Shown one piece after another: positions 50,261 through 59,409 of a stretch of DNA of 64,000 nt (position 1 is the first letter of the stretch; each line of letters starts with the position of its first letter). The notes under the pieces were generated by a model, which was not told where the DNA came from, did not search any database, and saw only the letters and a program-made list of their open reading frames with translations. The stretch comes from an uncultured Verrucomicrobiae bacterium (GTDB taxonomy: Bacteria; Verrucomicrobiota; Verrucomicrobiia; Chthoniobacterales; Chthoniobacteraceae), in the NCBI GenBank assembly GCA_963836755.1, contig CAWIKF010000002.1:1152001-1216000 (forward strand), written 5' to 3'. Made by a program: the position numbers and the translations under genes.

Positions 50261-52504
50261 TTACATCAACTTATCCAGCGTGATCGGCAGATCGCGGACG
50301 CGGCGGCCGGTCGCATGGAACACAGCGTTCGCGATCGCGGCGGGCGAGCCAGTGATCCCGATTTCGCCCATGCCGCGCGCGCCCATCGGATTGAATGCGT
50401 AGTCAGGCTCTCCGACGAAATGCACTTCGATGTCCGGCACGTCGGCATTCACCGGCACGTGATAATCGGCAAGGTTTCGCGTCGCCGGCAGGCCAGTCGC
50501 TGGATCCAAAACCGTCTCCTCTTCCAGCGCCATCCCGATTCCCATGACCACGCCGCCAAGGATTTGGCTGCGCGCCGTTTTGGCGTTGATGACGCGCCCG
50601 CAATCCATCACGGAGACGATGCGCGAGACCTGGACGCGCGGCAGCGCGGGATCAATTACTACTTCACAAAAATGGGCGCCGAACGATTGATGCGCCATCG
50701 ACTTGCTCGATTCCGACGCTTTGAAGCTTCCTTTGCCCTCGATCGAATCCATTCCGGCGCGTTTCAAAATATTCGCAAACGTGTCGCTCTTGTCCCTCTC
50801 TTTTTCGCCGGTGAGTTGGCCGGGAATGGCCATCACCAGATGCGCCGGGTCCATCCCATGCAAAGGCGACTGCGAATCCTTCGCGGCAACGGCGGCAAGG
50901 TTTTGATGCAAAGTTTTCGCCGCGTCGTGTATCGCCGATCCGACGGTCGCGGTCGTGTTTGATCCACCGGCGACGGGGCCGAACGGCAGATCGGAATTGC
51001 CGAGTTCAAACTTCACTTTTTCCACAGGCAGCCCAATCGCTTCCGCGCTGATTTGCGTCAGCACGGTGTATGCGCCGGTGCCGAGATCTTGCGCGGCGCA
51101 TTTTACCTCGGCCGTGCCGTCGGCGCGGAGATTGATGCTCACATCGGCGGCCATCGTGTGTGCCGGATAGGTTGCGGTCGCCATTCCCCAGCCGACCAGC
51201 AATCCATTTCGCTGCATCGAGCGAGGCTCGGGCGTGCGCCTCGACCAGCCGAACTTTTCCGCGCCGACCTGATACGCCTCCTTGAGATGTTTCGTGCTCC
51301 ACGGCTTGCCGTTCGTCGGATGGACATCGGAGTGATTCACGAGCCGCAACTGCACCGGATCCATCTTCAATGCGACGGCCAATTCATCCATCGCGCTCTC
51401 GAGACCGAAAGTGCCGGGACACTCGCCGGGCGCGCGCATGAAAGTCGGCGTCGCCACATTCACCTTGAAAACTTTTTCCTCAATCCGGATCGACGGGCTC
51501 GCATAAATCACGCCCGTCGAGCGCGAGCCAACGCTTTCGACGTAGTCGCCCACGTGCGAGCTCAGCGTCTCGCTGCGATGCCGCATTCCCTGCAATTTTC
51601 CGTCATGCGTCGCCGCGAGCGCGATGTGCTGCGTGGTCGGTGTGCGATGGCCGGTGCAGGTGAACATGTCGCGCCGCGAGACCGCGAATTTTACTGGCGC
51701 GTTCGCGGACTTTGCCGCCATCGCCGCGAGGATCACATGCGGCCAGACCGCGCCTTTGCAGCCAAACGCGCCGCCGACGAATGGGCTGAGCACGCGCACA
51801 TTTTCGCGCGGCAAATCGAAAACTTTCGCGAGCACATCCTGCACGCCTTTCACATATTGCGTCGCGTCGTGCAGCGTGAGCCGATCGGCCGCAACCCACT
51901 GCGCGAGCGTCGCCGACGGCTCCATCGGATTGTGCGTCTCCTGCGGCGTCGTGTAGGTATTTTCGACGATGACAAAACTCCTGTCGGCCAGCGCTTTTTC
52001 CGCGTCGCCCTTGTCCGTTTGCACCGGCTCGCCTTTGTTCTTGTCCGGTTTTTTCTCGGGAATTCCCTCCGCGTGATGGTTCAAATCCGGCGGCGATTCT
52101 TCGTAGCGAACTTTGATGATCGAAGCCGCGAAATGCGCTTGTTCGAGCGTGTCAGCCGCGACGAATGCGATGTATTGGCCGCCGTAGTAAACCTTGTCGT
52201 CCGCGAGCGGCAGCCGCTCCTCGTTCCGAATCCCGCCGCCCTGTTGCTGGCGGTCTTTGTGTGCGCTCGGGTCATGGAGTTTTGGTGCGTTTAAATGCGT
52301 GAGCACCAGCCGCACACCGGGCGCGCCTTCCGCGGCGGAGGTATCGATGCTTGCGACGCGGCCGTTCGAAATGCTGCTCGTCAACGCGAACCCGTGCAGC
52401 ATTTTTGGCGCGTCAAATTCCGCCGCGTATTTCGCCATGCCCTCGACCTTCGGGCGGCCGTCCACGCGGTTGATCGGTTTGCCGAGAATGTTGGGATCGC
52501 TCAT
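50261..52504 (-). CDS. paoC: xanthine dehydrogenase-family molybdopterin-binding subunit (PaoC/YagR-like)
   Basis: HNPMEP, VGGAFGCKG, FMRAPGE, QDLGTG, ARGMGEIG. Confidence 0.85.
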   Translation of the reverse strand: MSDPNILGKPINRVDGRPKVEGMAKYAAEFDAPKMLHGFALTSSISNGRVASIDTSAAEGAPGVRLVLTHLNAPKLHDPSAHKDRQQQGGGIRNEERLPLADDKVYYGGQYIAFVAADTLEQAHFAASIIKVRYEESPPDLNHHAEGIPEKKPDKNKGEPVQTDKGDAEKALADRSFVIVENTYTTPQETHNPMEPSATLAQWVAADRLTLHDATQYVKGVQDVLAKVFDLPRENVRVLSPFVGGAFGCKGAVWPHVILAAMAAKSANAPVKFAVSRRDMFTCTGHRTPTTQHIALAATHDGKLQGMRHRSETLSSHVGDYVESVGSRSTGVIYASPSIRIEEKVFKVNVATPTFMRAPGECPGTFGLESAMDELAVALKMDPVQLRLVNHSDVHPTNGKPWSTKHLKEAYQVGAEKFGWSRRTPEPRSMQRNGLLVGWGMATATYPAHTMAADVSINLRADGTAEVKCAAQDLGTGAYTVLTQISAEAIGLPVEKVKFELGNSDLPFGPVAGGSNTTATVGSAIHDAAKTLHQNLAAVAAKDSQSPLHGMDPAHLVMAIPGQLTGEKERDKSDTFANILKRAGMDSIEGKGSFKASESSKSMAHQSFGAHFCEVVIDPALPRVQVSRIVSVMDCGRVINAKTARSQILGGVVMGIGMALEEETVLDPATGLPATRNLADYHVPVNADVPDIEVHFVGEPDYAFNPMGARGMGEIGITGSPAAIANAVFHATGRRVRDLPITLDKLM

Positions 52505-53493
52505 GCCTTGGCCGCGACGGTCGTGAGCGCGCGGACGATGCTGCGCTTCGCGAGTTCGATTTTAAACGAGTTGTGTTGGTAACCTTTGGCATCCGCCAAT
52601 TCGGCCTCGGCTGCCGCGCGAAACGTCTGTTCATCAGGCTTCGCGCCGATCAGCTTCTGCTCCGCCTTGCTCGCGCGCCAAGGTTTCATTGCGACGCCGC
52701 CAAGCGCGACGCGCGCGGATTTGATCGAGCCGCCGTCCAGTTCGAGAGCCGCCGCGACGCTGACCAAAGCGAACGCGTAACTCGCGCGGTCGCGCATTTT
52801 CAAATAATGCGAATTCGCCGCAAATGGCAGCGCCGGCAGATCGACCGCGGTGATGATTTCATCCGGCGCGAGCGTCGTCTCGATCTGCGGCGTGTCGCCC
52901 GGCAGCCGATGAAAATCTTGCATCGCAATCTCGCGCTCACCACGCGGTCCGCTCACGCGCACGACCGCATCGAGCGCCATGAGCGCGACGCACATATCAC
53001 TCGGGTTCGTCGCGATGCACTGGTCGCTTTGGCCGAGAATTGCGTGGATTCGATTGTAGCCGTGGAGCGCTCCGCAGCCGCTGCCGGGCGCGCGTTTGTT
53101 GCACGATGGAAATGCCGGATCGTAAAAATAATAGCAGCGCGTGCGTTGCAAAAGATTGCCGCCGACCGTCGCCATGTTTCGCAACTGCGGACTCGCGCCG
53201 GACAAAAAAGCTTCGCTCAAAACGGGATAATTTCTCGTGATGAGCGGATGCTCCGCCACGTCGGAATTGCGAGCGAGCGCGCCGATGCGCACGCCTTTGC
53301 CGTCCGGCAGTTCCTCCACTTTTGTCAGCGGCAGCCGCGTGATATCGACGAGTTGATCTGGAGCCTCGACCCCCATTTTCATCAGGTCGATCAAGTTTGT
53401 CCCGCCGCCAAGCAGCTTCGCATGCGGCTTTGCGGAAAGCGTGCCAACAGCCTGCTGAACATCCGTGGCGCGGGCGTAAGTGAATGGGTTCAC
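52501..53493 (-). CDS. paoB: FAD-binding subunit (PaoB/YagS-like)
   Basis: GGGTNLIDLMK, GASPQLRNMATVGGN, Cys-rich RC.YF...CNKR..GSGC, RDRASYAFA; GTG 53493. Confidence 0.87.
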   Translation of the reverse strand: MNPFTYARATDVQQAVGTLSAKPHAKLLGGGTNLIDLMKMGVEAPDQLVDITRLPLTKVEELPDGKGVRIGALARNSDVAEHPLITRNYPVLSEAFLSGASPQLRNMATVGGNLLQRTRCYYFYDPAFPSCNKRAPGSGCGALHGYNRIHAILGQSDQCIATNPSDMCVALMALDAVVRVSGPRGEREIAMQDFHRLPGDTPQIETTLAPDEIITAVDLPALPFAANSHYLKMRDRASYAFALVSVAAALELDGGSIKSARVALGGVAMKPWRASKAEQKLIGAKPDEQTFRAAAEAELADAKGYQHNSFKIELAKRSIVRALTTVAAKA

Positions 53494-54146
53494 GCGTTCG
53501 CTCCCATCTTCGTTTGCGCCTCTTTGATCGCCGCGACGATGTTCGTGTAAGCGCCGCAGCGGCAGATATTCCCGCTCATCCATTCGCGGATTTCCCCGTC
53601 GCTCCGCGCGTGCCCTTCTTTCAAAAGCGCGACGGCCGAGCAAATTTGCCCCGGGGTGCAATAGCCGCACTGGAAGCCGTCGTGCTCGATGAACGCCGCC
53701 TGCACGGGATGCAATTCGTCGCCGTGCGCGAGTCCCTCGATCGTCGTTATTTCATCGCCCTCGTGCGTCACGGCGAGGCTGAGACACGAGTTGATGCGCC
53801 GGCCGTTGACGAGCACCGTGCACGCGCCGCACTGGCCGTGGTCGCAACCTTTTTTGGTGCCGGTTAAATCGAGCCGCTCGCGCAGCGCATCGAGCAGACT
53901 CACTCGCGGATCAAGCTCCAGAGCGTGTTCCGAGCCATTGATTTTCAGTGTGAGCTTCACCGTCGCCGCGCCTTCGAGCGCGGGCGTTGGGGCGGCGGAC
54001 ATTTTAAAAAGTTGGCCGCCGAGCGAAATCGCCGCGCCCGCGACGCCGACTTTTTTGATGAAAGTGCGGCGCGATTCCGTGTGGCGGGGGAGGTCGGATT
54101 CGCGGCCGACGCGCGAGCCGGAAAATCTGAAACCGTCTTCAGTCAC
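53490..54146 (-). CDS. paoA: 2x[2Fe-2S] subunit with Tat signal (PaoA/YagT-like)
   Basis: SRRTFIK Tat motif; GCDHGQCGAC, QCGYC, NICRC. Confidence 0.87.
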   Translation of the reverse strand: MTEDGFRFSGSRVGRESDLPRHTESRRTFIKKVGVAGAAISLGGQLFKMSAAPTPALEGAATVKLTLKINGSEHALELDPRVSLLDALRERLDLTGTKKGCDHGQCGACTVLVNGRRINSCLSLAVTHEGDEITTIEGLAHGDELHPVQAAFIEHDGFQCGYCTPGQICSAVALLKEGHARSDGEIREWMSGNICRCGAYTNIVAAIKEAQTKMGANA

Positions 54147-54742
54147 CCCTGCATTTCGTGGCTCGCAGCGACGGTGGATTTACAAAATCTTTCGTAGTCG
54201 CGCACCTCATCGATATCGAATTCGCCGTCGGGAAAATCGAGCGCGGTCACTTCCGCCGCATGCTCCGCGAGAAGCGGCTTCGCGCCTTGATCGCCGTGCA
54301 GCTCGAGCAACTCATCAAAAAACTTCCGCTCGAAAAAAACCGGCGAGCCGATGCTGCCGCCATAAGCCGAAGCGGCAATCGGCGCGTGCGCCGTCATCAA
54401 TCGATCGAGGTGCGCGCGCGAAATCATCGGCTGGTCGCAAAGTAAGATCAGCACCGCGTCCGCCTCGTCGCGCACGCTCGCCACGCCCGCGCGAATCGAC
54501 GACGCGATTCCCTCGCTCCAATTTTTGTTTTCAATAATCCGCACCGGCGAGCCGACGACCGCCTCCGCGCATTTTTTCGAAAACGCTCCGAGCACCACGA
54601 CCACAAGATCGGCCTGCGACTCGAGCGCGATGTCAGTCACGTGCGCGAGCAGTGATTGCCCGGCGACCGGCAGTAATTGCTTGGGACTTCCGAGCCGCGA
54701 CGAGCTGCCGGCGGCTAGAATCAATGCAGCGCAACGGTGCAT
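54143..54742 (-). CDS. mocA: molybdenum cofactor cytidylyltransferase-like protein
   Basis: ILAAGSSSRLG.PKQLL, W.EGIASS, LCDQP, GDQGA, DID. Confidence 0.82.
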   Translation of the reverse strand: MHRCAALILAAGSSSRLGSPKQLLPVAGQSLLAHVTDIALESQADLVVVVLGAFSKKCAEAVVGSPVRIIENKNWSEGIASSIRAGVASVRDEADAVLILLCDQPMISRAHLDRLMTAHAPIAASAYGGSIGSPVFFERKFFDELLELHGDQGAKPLLAEHAAEVTALDFPDGEFDIDEVRDYERFCKSTVAASHEMQG

Positions 54743-55647
54743 GAATGCGCAACCTCGTGAATCGGTCGGCGGCAATCGCGCAAAAAACCGCCGCCATGAT
54801 TTGCCATCGCCGCTTGAATTTCCGCGACGATCGACAGCGCGATTTCGTCCGGTGATTCTGCGCCGACATCGAGTCCGGCTGGTCCGTAAAAATGATGCAG
54901 CGCCGAGTTCACCGGCAGCAATCCGGCCGTCATCAGCGCGTTGAGCAGCTCGCTTTTTCGCCGCCGCGAACCGAGCAGGCCGATGTATCCGAACGGCTTC
55001 GGAAGCGCGCATTGCAGCGCGGCAAAGTCGCGCCCGAAATGATGATTTTTCACGATGACGGCAGTGCGCGCATCGGGCTCAAGCGTCATCGCATCGGGGC
55101 GTTCGAGCAGCATCGCGTCCCAGCCGAGCAGTCGCGAAAAACAAAGCAGCTCGTCCGTCCCGGCGCTGTCACCGAAGATGACGAGCCGAACCGGCGGCGC
55201 GATGATTTCCTGGAATCCCTCCATTCCCGCGGGGCAAAGTTCCTGCGGATACGATGCGCGGAGCGGCGAGTTTTCAAAAACGACCGCTACTCGTGCCGGT
55301 TGTCGCTTCGCGAAACATTGTGCGACGTATTTTAAAAACGCGTTTCCCGGCTCGATGCGCTCGACGAACACCTCAATCGTCCCGTGGCAGCCGAAACGCT
55401 TCAACGTATCGATCGGAAATAACTCCGGCACGCCGGATGCGATCACGGGCAGCGCGCGTTGCGCAATTTCCTCCTCGATGCAGCCGCCGCTCAACGTGCC
55501 GACCGTTTGCCCGTCCGCAAATATCAGCATTCGCGCGCCGGGTTTGCGATAGCTCGAGCCGGTCGTCCGCACAATCGTCGCCAGCGCCATGTGCTCGCGC
55601 GCGCCGGCGAACGCTTCGAGGATTCTGCGCAGCTCTTTCATGGACAT
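54721..55647 (-). CDS. xdhC: XdhC/PaoD-family Moco insertion chaperone
   Basis: GSSYRKPGARM, GTLSGGCIE, YIGLLGSRR, GPAGLDVGAESPDEIALSI. Confidence 0.88.
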   Translation of the reverse strand: MSMKELRRILEAFAGAREHMALATIVRTTGSSYRKPGARMLIFADGQTVGTLSGGCIEEEIAQRALPVIASGVPELFPIDTLKRFGCHGTIEVFVERIEPGNAFLKYVAQCFAKRQPARVAVVFENSPLRASYPQELCPAGMEGFQEIIAPPVRLVIFGDSAGTDELLCFSRLLGWDAMLLERPDAMTLEPDARTAVIVKNHHFGRDFAALQCALPKPFGYIGLLGSRRRKSELLNALMTAGLLPVNSALHHFYGPAGLDVGAESPDEIALSIVAEIQAAMANHGGGFLRDCRRPIHEVAHSCTVALH

Positions 55648-56605: not shown

Positions 56606-57163
56606 CTACGCGCGGCCCATGTAGGCGCCGGTGCGCGTGTCGACTTTGATCAGCTCGCCTTCCTTGATGAAGAGCGGGACGGTGATGCTCTTCCCGGTTT
56701 CGAGCACGGCCGGTTTTTGCACGTTGTTCGCGCTGTCGCCGCGGACGCCTTCGGCGGACTCGATGACTTTGATGTGCACCGATGCGGGCATTTCCAGCTG
56801 GGCCGGTTTTCCCTCGATGGAAAGCACCTGCACCTTGAGATTTTCCACGAGATAATCTTTCCCGTCGCCGAGCAGAGCCTCATCGAGCGTGATCGTCTCG
56901 TAGGTGCCGGGGTCCATGAAGTGATAGCCCTGGTGATCTTTGTAGGAAAATTCCAGCTCCTGCCGTTGCACGTCCACCGTTTCGATTTTGTCCGTCGAGC
57001 CGAAGCGGACATCGGCGCTTTTGCCGGTATTAATATAGCGGATGATCGCCTGCACGAACGCGCGGAGATTGCCCGGCGTGCGGTGCTGGACTTCGAGGAC
57101 GATGGCCGGGTTGCCGTTGTAACGGATGGCCATGCCTTTGCGGAGATCGTTTGCGAGTGCCAT
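56606..57163 (-). CDS. efp: translation elongation factor P
   Basis: ANDLRKG, HRTPGNLRAFVQ, FMD..TYE, GVRGDSA...KPA.LETG..I.VPLFI..GE.I.VDTR.G.Y..RA. Confidence 0.95.
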   Translation of the reverse strand: MALANDLRKGMAIRYNGNPAIVLEVQHRTPGNLRAFVQAIIRYINTGKSADVRFGSTDKIETVDVQRQELEFSYKDHQGYHFMDPGTYETITLDEALLGDGKDYLVENLKVQVLSIEGKPAQLEMPASVHIKVIESAEGVRGDSANNVQKPAVLETGKSITVPLFIKEGELIKVDTRTGAYMGRA

Positions 57164-57196
57164 GGAGAAAGTGCGGTGGTTTGGAGGTGGGCGCGT

Positions 57197-57225
57197 AGTA
57201 TTGCCGCGCCTCCGTGTCGAGTCAA
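57197..57225 (-). promoter_or_regulatory. sigma70 promoter of efp
   Basis: TTGACT-17bp-AATACT on the minus strand, 33 nt before the ATG. Confidence 0.6.
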
Positions 57226-57250
57226 AGGGAAGATTCTCCGCTCGCGGTGA

Positions 57251-57562
57251 ATGGCGCGTGCCGCTCCTGCGGAAAAAGTTTCCGTCGCGACGGGAGGGTG
57301 CGGCTTCGCGACGGGAAGCGCTGCCGTCGCGACGGGATTCATTTCCTTCGCGACGGTTTTGATTTCCTTCGCCACGGGAAAGGCTGCCGTCCGCGCGGCG
57401 GCGATTCCCTTCGCGCCGGGCGGCGCATCCGTCGGGCGGGGAATGTTTCCCGTCGCGAAGCCGGGGATTCCCCTCGGGACGGGAAAGGCGGGCGCGGGGA
57501 CGAATTGGCTTGCCGCGGGTCGGGCGGGCGGTTTCGATGCGGAGGAAGCGGAATTTTTTTGA
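57251..57562 (+). CDS. possible 103-aa heptad-repeat peptide (xSVATGx), coding status uncertain
   Basis: ATG-initiated ORF spanning the array and ending 3 nt before the next ATG; most other frames are also open here. Confidence 0.25.
   Translation: MARAAPAEKVSVATGGCGFATGSAAVATGFISFATVLISFATGKAAVRAAAIPFAPGGASVGRGMFPVAKPGIPLGTGKAGAGTNWLAAGRAGGFDAEEAEFF
57278..57487. repeat. degenerate tandem array, ten 21-bp units with palindromic core
   Basis: Units in exact 21-bp register from 57278; consensus ATT-NCC-KTC-GCG-ACG-GGA-NNN; perfect CCGTCGCGACGG at 57282-57293 and 57324-57335. Confidence 0.85.
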
Positions 57563-57565
57563 CCC

Positions 57566-58267
57566 ATGTCCACACCTTATTACCCTGAAACCATCGAAGG
57601 CCGCGCGGATTGGTGGCAAAACAAGATCGACAAGATCGGCATCATCACCGCGCTCGATGCCGAGGCCGCGCCGGCCATCCTCGAGGATGCGAAGATGGCG
57701 GTTTACCTCTATCGGACGCTGCCGGGGCTCTACGATACGTTCGTCGTCCAGGTGCACGGCTACATCAACTCCTACCTCACCGGCGCCGTGGGAACGCCCG
57801 CGCCGAAAGTGATGCCGCTGCCTGCCTGGCCAGCGATGCCCGTGACGGGCGTGGTCTCGGGAATCGAGGGCCGACGCGTGAAATGGGTGCCCGTTTTAAA
57901 AAACAGCACCGGCTATGAGCCGACGAACCAAGGAGTCGCGTTGCTGCTCGAGTCCGTGGGCGGGGCCTTCCAGCCGGACAGTTACAAGGCGGAGATCGTC
58001 TCGGTGGAAAGCCTGGCGGTGGCGCAGGTGATGGTGAAATTCCGCAAGGCGCGCGGTGCGATCACCGGCATGGCTTTCAACGGGCGCAAGACCGGGACCG
58101 GAACTTTCCTCGACCTCGGGCGCTTCACGGTGACGCCGGCGAGCCTGCACATCCCGATCGGCACGCCGGGGCAGGCGGAGCTGTGGGAAATCCAGGGGCA
58201 GGCGTTTAAGGGCGACACACTCATCGGCACGCCAAGCAGTATCTCGGAAGTGCTGGTGCGCGGGTAG
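57566..58267 (+). CDS. hypothetical protein (helical N-terminus, Pro-rich linker, beta-rich Ig/FN3-like C-terminus)
   Basis: 233-aa ORF with strong G/C third-position bias; no signal peptide; C-terminal WEIQGQAFKGDTLIGTPSSISEVLVRG. Confidence 0.75.
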   Translation: MSTPYYPETIEGRADWWQNKIDKIGIITALDAEAAPAILEDAKMAVYLYRTLPGLYDTFVVQVHGYINSYLTGAVGTPAPKVMPLPAWPAMPVTGVVSGIEGRRVKWVPVLKNSTGYEPTNQGVALLLESVGGAFQPDSYKAEIVSVESLAVAQVMVKFRKARGAITGMAFNGRKTGTGTFLDLGRFTVTPASLHIPIGTPGQAELWEIQGQAFKGDTLIGTPSSISEVLVRG

Positions 58268-58293
58268 GGCGTGGCGACGGCGGGAACGCGCGT

Positions 58294-59409
58294 CTAGCTG
58301 TCGGTGCCCGGCGCGGTGCGGGACTCCATCGGGATGGCGTTGCGGAAATGGACGTCGCGCTGCGGAAACGGAATCTCGACGCCGGCGGCGCGAAGTTTTT
58401 TCTCAATGGCGAAGTTCAGGTCGCTGCGAAAGCGGCGCGGGCGATCGCTCATCTCGTTACTCCAGACGACGAGTTGAAAGTTGAGCGAGCTGTCGCCAAA
58501 CGCGTCGAAGAAAACCGTCGGCGCTGGATTCGCGAGCGCGGCCGGATGCTCGCGCGCGACCTCGATGAGGCAGGCGCAAACTTTTTCCACATCGGACCCG
58601 TAGGCGACGCCGATGGGGATGCGGAAGCGGACTTTGGGATCGCCGACGCTCCAGTTCGTGACGGTTTCTTTCACGAAATAGGAGTTCGGGACGATGAGGG
58701 CGATGTTGTCGTTGGTGACAATCGTCGTGCTGCGCGCGCGGATTTGGCGCACCGCGCCGGCGGCACTGCCGACCTCGACGCGGTCGCCGATGGCGATCGG
58801 GCGCTCGGCGAGAATGATGAGACCGCTGAGAAAGTTGCTCGCGATTTCCTGCAAGCCGAGGCCGACGCCGACACCGACCGCGCCTGCAAAAACCGTGAGA
58901 GCCGAGAGATCGATGCCCGCATTTTGCGCGACGACGAAACAGCCCAGGACGAGGACGACGTAGCCGGTGATCTGGCTCACCGTGTATTGCATCGCGCGGT
59001 CCATTCCGCTGCGCGAAAGGAAGCGGTTTAAAAGAAAACGCTTCGCGAGCGACGACGCCCAGAACACGAGCACGACCATCACGACGAGGCGCAAGATGCC
59101 GGTGAGGCTGAGGCCGATGCCCGGCAGCGGCGCCGCCCAATTGATCGGCAGCCCGGCGATGTTCAGCCCGATCAAGACCGCGGTCACGAAAACCGCGAGG
59201 CTCATGCAGGCGGTGACGAAGGCGACGACTCCTTTTTCCAGGCCGAACCGGGTGAGCCATCTCCGCATCCGCTCGCTTTGCAGAAAGCCGGACCCCGCAA
59301 GCCCGATGAGGAACGCAAGCCCGAAGCCAGCCATCCCCGCGATGGAAAGATGATGCCCGAAGAGCGGGAAGCGGTTTTCAAAAAGCCACGCGGAGTTCAT
59401 CCCTCCCAT
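58294..59409 (-). CDS. MscS-family mechanosensitive channel
   Basis: GAVGVGVGLGLQEIASNFLSGL, PIAIGDRV, IVPNS, IGVAYGSD, EIPFPQRDVH. Confidence 0.92.
   Translation of the reverse strand: MGGMNSAWLFENRFPLFGHHLSIAGMAGFGLAFLIGLAGSGFLQSERMRRWLTRFGLEKGVVAFVTACMSLAVFVTAVLIGLNIAGLPINWAAPLPGIGLSLTGILRLVVMVVLVFWASSLAKRFLLNRFLSRSGMDRAMQYTVSQITGYVVLVLGCFVVAQNAGIDLSALTVFAGAVGVGVGLGLQEIASNFLSGLIILAERPIAIGDRVEVGSAAGAVRQIRARSTTIVTNDNIALIVPNSYFVKETVTNWSVGDPKVRFRIPIGVAYGSDVEKVCACLIEVAREHPAALANPAPTVFFDAFGDSSLNFQLVVWSNEMSDRPRRFRSDLNFAIEKKLRAAGVEIPFPQRDVHFRNAIPMESRTAPGTDS

Follow-up and report, generated by a model that had tools for sequence, protein, structure and literature searches.

Plasmid iterons and centromeres are arrays of direct repeats that are phased on the DNA helix, measure about two turns and adjoin the gene for a dimer-forming protein (Rep, or ParB/ParR). 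Type III toxin-antitoxin systems (ToxIN, AbiQ, CptIN and TenpIN) place a tandem array with a period of about 34–50 nt directly upstream of one small gene. The pneumococcal BOX, mycobacterial MIRU and cyanobacterial STRR/SDR elements are dispersed, are built of tandem units and lie between genes and sometimes in coding sequence; to our knowledge, each is a single sequence family without a linked gene superfamily. In REPIN/RAYT systems, as set out in parts of one account (PMC3337134), divergent single-copy genes each sit beside their own repeat family, gene-less repeats are dispersed, and the purpose of the gene is unclear. Passages of a second account (PMC3733652) place some REP/REPIN copies inside coding regions, those of tRNA synthetases included, and describe Rickettsia palindromic elements (RPE), repeat DNA that is translated in frame and thereby lengthens housekeeping proteins by additional segments.

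We analyzed a stretch of 64,000 nucleotides (hereafter the window) from the genome of an uncultured Verrucomicrobiae bacterium (G000), in which a tandem array of 21-bp units and the gene for a 233-aa protein lie between efp and mscS (Table 1). The initial annotation of this DNA had proposed a repeat-plus-protein cassette and had raised the question of whether efp and mscS are adjacent in relatives. The cassette interpretation is supported: arrays also lie upstream of homologues of the gene, and in G002, a genome of the same genus, the efp promoter stands directly behind the mscS stop, with neither array nor gene in the gap. The two genes adjoin each other at one of 11 relative efp loci; since the other ten have different neighbors, the module may have been lost in G002 instead of gained here. 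Divergence at the empty G002 site is too great for a base-by-base comparison of the insertion ends. Five neighbor genes were scanned, namely efp, mscS, XdhC, GH28 and a membrane protein without assignment. The window also holds an ordinary xanthine-dehydrogenase-type cluster (50261–55647; Mo, FAD and Fe-S subunits, a nucleotidyltransferase and XdhC), of which XdhC alone was profile-scanned.

Table 1. Features of the efp–mscS gap and its flanks (positions within the window).
Feature	Position	Strand	Basis
efp (elongation factor P), left neighbor	56606..57163	-	
efp promoter-like site TTGACT-17-AATACT, sigma-70-like host flank; in G002 too, without array	57197..57225	-	
Module, about 1.06 kb, from efp -35 box to mscS stop; ends approximate; missing from G002 gap	57232..58293	.	
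103-codon open frame spanning the array, stopping 3 nt short of the gene	57251..57562	+	
21-bp array, ten units, consensus GTTTCCGTCGCGACGGGAGGG, palindromic core	57278..57487	.	repeat analysis
233-aa gene, unnamed family (here family A)	57566..58267	+	
N-terminal helical domain, residues 10–125, including a 38-residue helix	57593..57940	+	structure model
C-terminal fibronectin type III (FN3) fold, residues 134–233	57965..58264	+	structure model and fold search
Core-like GTGGCGACGG past the gene stop, no general module feature	58271..58280	+	
mscS-family channel, right neighbor, convergent on the 233-aa gene	58294..59409	-	

The ten units are gapless and in exact phase throughout the array, with positions C6, T8, C9 and G15 invariant, just as first described. 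Their self-match score at period 21 is 52, whereas shuffles of the region (n = 500) gave at most 12.75 and any other period from 13 to 39 within the window at most 18.25. The consensus core, CCGTCGCGACGG, is indeed a palindrome, although a perfect one in units 1 and 3 only, and the decay of conservation toward the gene that had been noted is present but mild (mean profile score 23.4 in units 1–5 and 18.2 in units 6–10, with unit 10 at 23.7). The distance from the efp promoter, given earlier as about 50 bp, measures 53 bp to unit 1, and the 233-aa gene starts 78 bp beyond the array end. The core-like copy after the gene's stop exists but is not a module-wide feature. When unit-like copies past the stop were considered as a possible module end, just 2 of 20 modules had one that scored above each of 25 background windows, and the copy seen here is therefore probably incidental. 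No second array of the window's unit was found in this genome (best 7-mer similarity 0.11). The initial exclusion of CRISPR stands, as the 21-bp units run head to tail without spacers, no cas gene occurs among the five neighbors scanned, and no Rfam match is near threshold.

The 233-aa frame is a real gene, with 14 close and 603 distant homologues (E ≤ 0.001); the homologous loci that bear names come from Chthoniobacterales and Spartobacteria MAGs. Its product matched no family in Pfam or NCBIfam, nucleic-acid-binding and catalytic families included. The structure model (pLDDT 84, pTM 0.53) combines a helical N-terminal domain with a beta-sandwich that matches FN3 domains. Fold searches with the whole model yielded only FN3 matches, and the helical domain modeled alone from a single sequence reached a pLDDT of 37. 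An antiparallel homodimer with its interface at residues 44–103 is predicted with a score of 0.85 (best of three controls, 0.00; 20 of 30 solved pairs attain the mark set for this score, as does 1 of 23 single chains). Runs of the dimer model share at least 77% of their contacts, with pLDDT of at least 85, and the modeling supports the view that the protein forms a homodimer. Conserved polar residues in 63 aligned homologues include R103 (76%), K112 (84%) and Y117 (94%), and no histidine is conserved in 60% or more of them. Of six paralogue pairs, five give dN/dS estimates of 0.30–0.61 and one gives 0.87. Two paralogues of family A are encoded in this genome at 53–55%, each with an unrelated array of its own.

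The initial annotation missed that gene-less arrays occur throughout the genome, some of them inside essential genes. In a first scan over periods 4–63, period 21 gave 56 loci, period 42 gave 54, period 63 gave 47 and period 41 gave 13, with no more than six at any other period. There were no loci at periods 7, 14 and 28 across the genome; unlike in STRR-type heptamers, there is no underlying 7-bp unit. A second scan at periods 20, 21, 41 and 42 detected 74 loci, compared to 0–1 at nine control periods. We analyzed 65 of these and set aside nine as coiled-coil coding (r3, r72), low-complexity coding (r20, r26, r47) or weak (r27, r60, r71), along with r17, which later proved to be a true copy of r55 at 95%. 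The analyzed arrays comprise 25 upstream of genes or gene stubs and 40 without a gene (orphans). They consist of about 5–26 tandem units over 200–400 bp, the units being 56–95% alike. In this genome an array lies upstream of 20 of 24 family ORFs, as opposed to 6 of 150 random ORFs.

The array-linked genes belong to several divergent families encoding signal-less proteins of about 200–350 aa, some helical with an FN3 domain and some apparently all helical. The FN3 domain is absent from several of the families, whose kinship to family A is putative. The array-linked proteins examined (n = 21) are neutral or acidic, with net charges from -9 to +2. At one locus (L036, C2:1045896–1046542), a gene for a 159-aa Ala-rich protein without a Pfam match has a 21-bp array downstream, as is also the case for the array of L073. 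Genes for large secreted proteins starting MKYKQSFALKLR adjoin three arrays (C1:229510, C2:1904311 and C2:709161–713279), two of which belong to the paralogues of the window's gene.

Across period-21 arrays, the step from one unit to the next is 21 bp in 574 cases, 20 bp in 32, 22 bp in four and 19 bp in three. Ten further loci have a period of 41 bp, that is 20 + 21, with 41 steps of 41 bp, and the half unit measures 10.25–10.5 bp. The power spectrum of conservation has its peaks at periods of 10.5 and 21 bp. The helical phasing proposed for the window's array is thus borne out by steps of 21 and 20 + 21 bp and by these peaks. Phased A-tracts at 10.5 bp within units were considered and rejected, with no positive autocorrelation at lags 9–10.

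The sequence of the arrays, in contrast to their period, is free, and it turns over faster than that of the proteins. Three pairs of proteins at 75, 78 and 84% identity have arrays with a 7-mer similarity of only 0.01–0.02, and the correlation between protein and array similarity is weak (Mantel rho 0.12, p = 0.066, n = 24 loci). No co-evolution of protein and array was found, and the idea of a sequence-matched pair of operator and protein is not supported, as array sequence does not track protein sequence. Stems of at least 5 bp are present in 27 of the 65 array consensuses (8.8 ± 2.9 by chance), an enrichment that falls short of making the palindrome a general key. No motif common to the 65 consensuses was obvious.

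Arrays are mobile in this genome, and their period is kept. Half of the orphans (20 of 40) resemble a gene-linked array, and the other 20 are without a recognizable parent. Among 20 tested orphan–parent pairs, the order of the single units is colinear in ten (p ≤ 0.05) and not significantly so in the other ten. The youngest copies span 270–650 bp at 87–96% identity, and two young copies extend from the DNA ahead of the array to the opening codons of the parent gene, where they end. In 14 aligned copy pairs the ends vary on both sides, and neither terminal inverted repeats nor target-site duplications were seen by eye, unlike in insertion sequences or MITEs; such ragged ends fit passive duplication equally well. 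The initial annotation had named genome-wide dispersal of the unit, as a REP-like element, as a finding that would speak against the module. Dispersal does hold for other array families but not for the window's own array, which has no daughter copy in the genome, and this extends the system rather than refuting it. At two sites (C1:698886–703538 and C1:273670–274680), an array together with its upstream region and the opening codons of one gene is fused to unrelated frames, in what looks like promoter and start-codon capture.

Arrays also lie in frame inside alaS, nrdJ (class II ribonucleotide reductase), ispG and the gene for an RND pump, where they add about 70–110 residues. Between fixed anchors, the segment measures 156 aa in alaS here (46, 46, 100, 116 and 117 in relatives), 132 aa in nrdJ (58, 59, 59 and 82), 142 aa in ispG (50, 51, 53 and 78, with one relative unanchored) and 144 aa in the RND pump (46 and 47). 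It is short in 2/5, 3/4, 3/5 and 2/2 loci of relatives, respectively. The alaS array matches a gene-linked array (76% over 207 bp), as the ispG array does another (85% over 110 bp), and no parent for the nrdJ and RND pump arrays was found among the gene-linked arrays of the genome. In-gene copies are found in both orientations relative to their parents. In G002, alaS carries a different 21-bp array in the same loop, which is single-copy there and has no parent in G002 or G001.

This loop carries an insertion in four of the six alaS alleles that were examined. The alaS gene of G000 (L019, C1:58953–62516) holds, in addition to its array, an in-frame Y1-transposase-like segment (C1:60318–60581); Y1 transposase has two matches in the genome, and no link to the module was found. 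In G006, which has no family A, C or D gene, there are 7-bp repeats, some of them in frame in nrdJ and ispG in the same loops (L038, L043, L053, L153).

A short motif, TTTACTCTG, accompanies some arrays. Of its 31 genomic copies, 19 lie within 150 bp of an array (0.35 expected), mostly pointing away from it. The motif could hold a -10 box, and in two G001 loci it stands 20–32 nt before the start of a gene of this class. The gene may lie on either side of the motif. The end motif marks about a third of arrays in the genus; in the window's module its only match is a chance one within the gene. Viewed as CAGAGTAA(A), the motif is found at array ends in this genus (19/31 in G000, 4/7 loci in G001 and 5/7 in G002; L088–L117) and in 0/16 loci of three other genera. 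In those genera, some copies abut tRNA genes or apparent partial tRNA copies, and the motif may be either a promoter box or an element-end signal.

At full-length homologue loci in other genomes (n = 21, ten partial loci having been left out), an array lies upstream in 15 cases and downstream in two, in agreement with the flanking repeats of homologues that the initial annotation had named as support for a system. Within the class, 27 of 251 genomes contain family A, frequently with many copies each. Among 41 related genomes, eight carry both families A and D (one A match being weak), three carry one of them and 30 carry neither; six of the seven genomes with family C fall among the 11 with A or D. 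In 400-kb samples, the gene-bearing genomes G002 and G024 contained 11 and 6 arrays, and the gene-free genomes G003, G006 and G022 contained 0, 0 and 5. The five arrays of G022 look by eye like protein repeats, three of them with a strong period-3 signal. The tendency is for a genome to contain either several of the gene families along with many arrays, or none of them; the five genomes sampled for arrays are few, and related genomes are not independent.

An integron integrase was considered as a required partner and rejected, as it is present in 6/11 genomes with family A or D and in 13/30 without. In G000 (C2:763489–766015), no more than about 1.3 kb separates a family gene from the 3' end of an integron integrase gene, and the same proximity was seen in 3 of 14 other integrase loci fetched (in G002, G024 and G028, all module-bearing). 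In G004, a 42-bp array lies beside an integrase with no family gene detected. The IHF consensus near arrays in other genomes was likewise dismissed (nine seen, 5.4 expected). A search of G000 (96% complete) with the PF00078 model gave no reverse transcriptase match, which sets the system apart from retroelements. In one subfamily from other genomes, a short open frame rich in W/F-D motifs was noted by eye between array and gene (L063, L070, L071, L072, L074, L075, L086); none was seen in the window.

We tentatively favor, with a confidence slightly short of even, the explanation that the module is a mobile, selfish, many-copy element in which the array is copied and a protein dimer binds it by spacing more than by sequence. 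The module is likely an undescribed kind of mobile DNA. According to this model, the array would be the cis part of which new sites receive copies, and the protein, predicted to be a dimer with two-fold symmetry, would bind it as double-stranded DNA, with one dimer per two helical turns. Recognition would rely on spacing more than on sequence, and selection on the period could come from co-operative binding on one face of the DNA. The protein coat might then promote copying, either because it makes recombination or repair by the host more likely at the array or because the R103-K112-Y117 cluster has a cryptic activity. Points against this explanation are the neutral or acidic charge of the linked proteins, the lack of a match to any known nucleic-acid-binding or catalytic family, the ragged copy ends, the 20 parentless orphans, the ten pairs without significant colinearity, the paralogue pair with a dN/dS of 0.87, the single-copy alaS array of G002 and the missing daughter of the window's own array. 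A stronger form of the proposal, which we regard as unlikely, is a new class of selfish element without a known transposase fold, whose dimers coat DNA with a two-turn ruler and drive the birth, renewal and copying of 21-bp arrays, perhaps by tyrosine-based nicking at R103-K112-Y117. If true, mobility would be programmed by length and not by sequence, and would rewrite promoters and write loops into essential proteins.

Several other explanations account for part of these observations. A nucleoid protein or an activator of the host could use the array as an upstream platform from which it controls the gene's promoter, with the job of the module's own protein being unrelated and the orphans being passive by-products of recombination-prone repeats, kept where they are harmless or carry a promoter. 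We consider this possible but doubtful. Arrays do sit about 40–320 bp upstream of gene starts, TTTACTCTG clusters near them and precedes starts in the two G001 loci, the proteins are not basic and the copy ends are ragged. A host factor would, however, be expected to show some sequence preference, and the consensuses have no obvious common motif; moreover, TTTACTCTG is missing from the window's module and has the gene on either side elsewhere. The association of arrays with divergent gene families and their co-occurrence across genomes would also be left unexplained. Growth of arrays in place by replication slippage, comparable to cyanobacterial heptamer repeats and without copying between sites, is very unlikely, and as a sole cause it is largely refuted. 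It would suit the different arrays of two genomes in the same alaS loop, the parentless nrdJ and RND pump arrays and the runs of near-identical units within young arrays. Yet it does not account for the matches of the alaS and ispG arrays to gene-linked arrays or for the ten colinear pairs, and period-7 and -14 arrays are absent from the genome. Slippage probably reshapes arrays after copying, but cannot yield families common to unrelated sites.

The two remaining explanations, a structured RNA and a repeat peptide, were both options in the initial annotation, and neither fared well. It is improbable that the array is transcribed to a repeat RNA that is bound by the protein or cut to 21-nt units, acting like an antitoxin or a guide with the anatomy of a type III toxin-antitoxin system. 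The order of array and then gene fits such a system, and fixed length with free sequence suits a programmable RNA. The window's array region folds well as RNA (z = -3.8), but tandem palindromes must fold; 52 arrays also fold better than column-permuted controls (median z -1.3, 38% below -2). There is, however, no excess of compensatory changes, as 136 of 321 double changes restore pairing (42%) compared to 122 of 282 (43%) in shuffled data, and changes that keep G-T pairs (314) are not above A-C (380). No Rfam family is near threshold for the window region, and a simple consensus scan of the plus strand (57100–58350) found no terminator between array and gene. In-gene copies in both orientations, and a step of 20.5–21 that fits B-DNA, also speak against an RNA. 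That the array instead encodes a heptad-repeat peptide, as leader or partner of the protein, is the explanation we consider most improbable. In its favor, 21 bp equal seven codons, the 103-codon frame ends just before the gene, five homologues were called with heptad-like N-terminal extensions, four host proteins tolerate in-frame inserts, and the sense frame is open in 15/19 gene-linked arrays as opposed to 9/19 for the antisense. But the period of the ten 41-bp loci is no multiple of three, 20-bp steps shift the frame in gene-linked arrays r4, r11, r24, r44, r67 and r70, and in four gene-linked arrays none of the three sense frames is free of stops. Nor is there a codon-position signal, with conservation power of 0.073 at period 3, below the flat level of 0.1. 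The frame over the window's array is probably not a conserved peptide. Taken together, a fixed period, free sequence and the lack of compensatory change speak against all three of a peptide, a hairpin RNA and a cognate operator of the classical kind.

Measured against the described systems, the module resembles REPIN/RAYT in its genome-wide pattern, in that each gene has its own repeat family and dispersed gene-less copies (20 of 40 orphans match), the window's own array excepted. It differs in having no HUH/Y1 transposase: the protein has no Y1_Tnp match at E ≤ 1 and no conserved histidine, and its model is helical plus FN3. The repeats are tandem, phase-locked 20–21-bp units on one side of the gene (upstream in 15/21) and not tagged hairpins or inverted pairs flanking it, their sequence does not track that of the protein, and under half of the units are palindromic. 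Unlike RPE, the in-frame inserts are tandem 21-bp arrays, two of four tracing to arrays that head a dedicated gene. The repeats resemble those of iteron and centromere systems in being phased on the helix, but they are chromosomal, number dozens per genome and are decoupled in sequence from the protein, which matches no winged-helix, HTH or ribbon-helix-helix family. Type III toxin-antitoxin systems are set apart by the period of 21 and degenerate units seen here, with no terminator at this locus, no RNase family match and no pairing covariation. In contrast to BOX, MIRU and STRR/SDR, the arrays here fall into many sequence families with a common period and a linked gene. No description of the array-plus-gene module was found in the literature searched, which was mostly open-access, and the module is widespread and apparently undescribed in that literature.

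The combination of a period fixed at two turns of DNA with a free sequence departs from the known logic of operators, iterons, REP elements and CRISPR. Beyond what a single locus offers, this genome adds orphans that can be traced to gene-linked parents, copies that are truncated, a site that lacks the module and arrays that have landed in frame in alaS, nrdJ and ispG. The question of function can now be tested as one of mobility, using natural parent–daughter array pairs. If the protein reads spacing, it could become a tool for phased DNA scaffolds; if it mobilizes arrays, the module would represent a new route to promoter capture and to the birth of protein loops.
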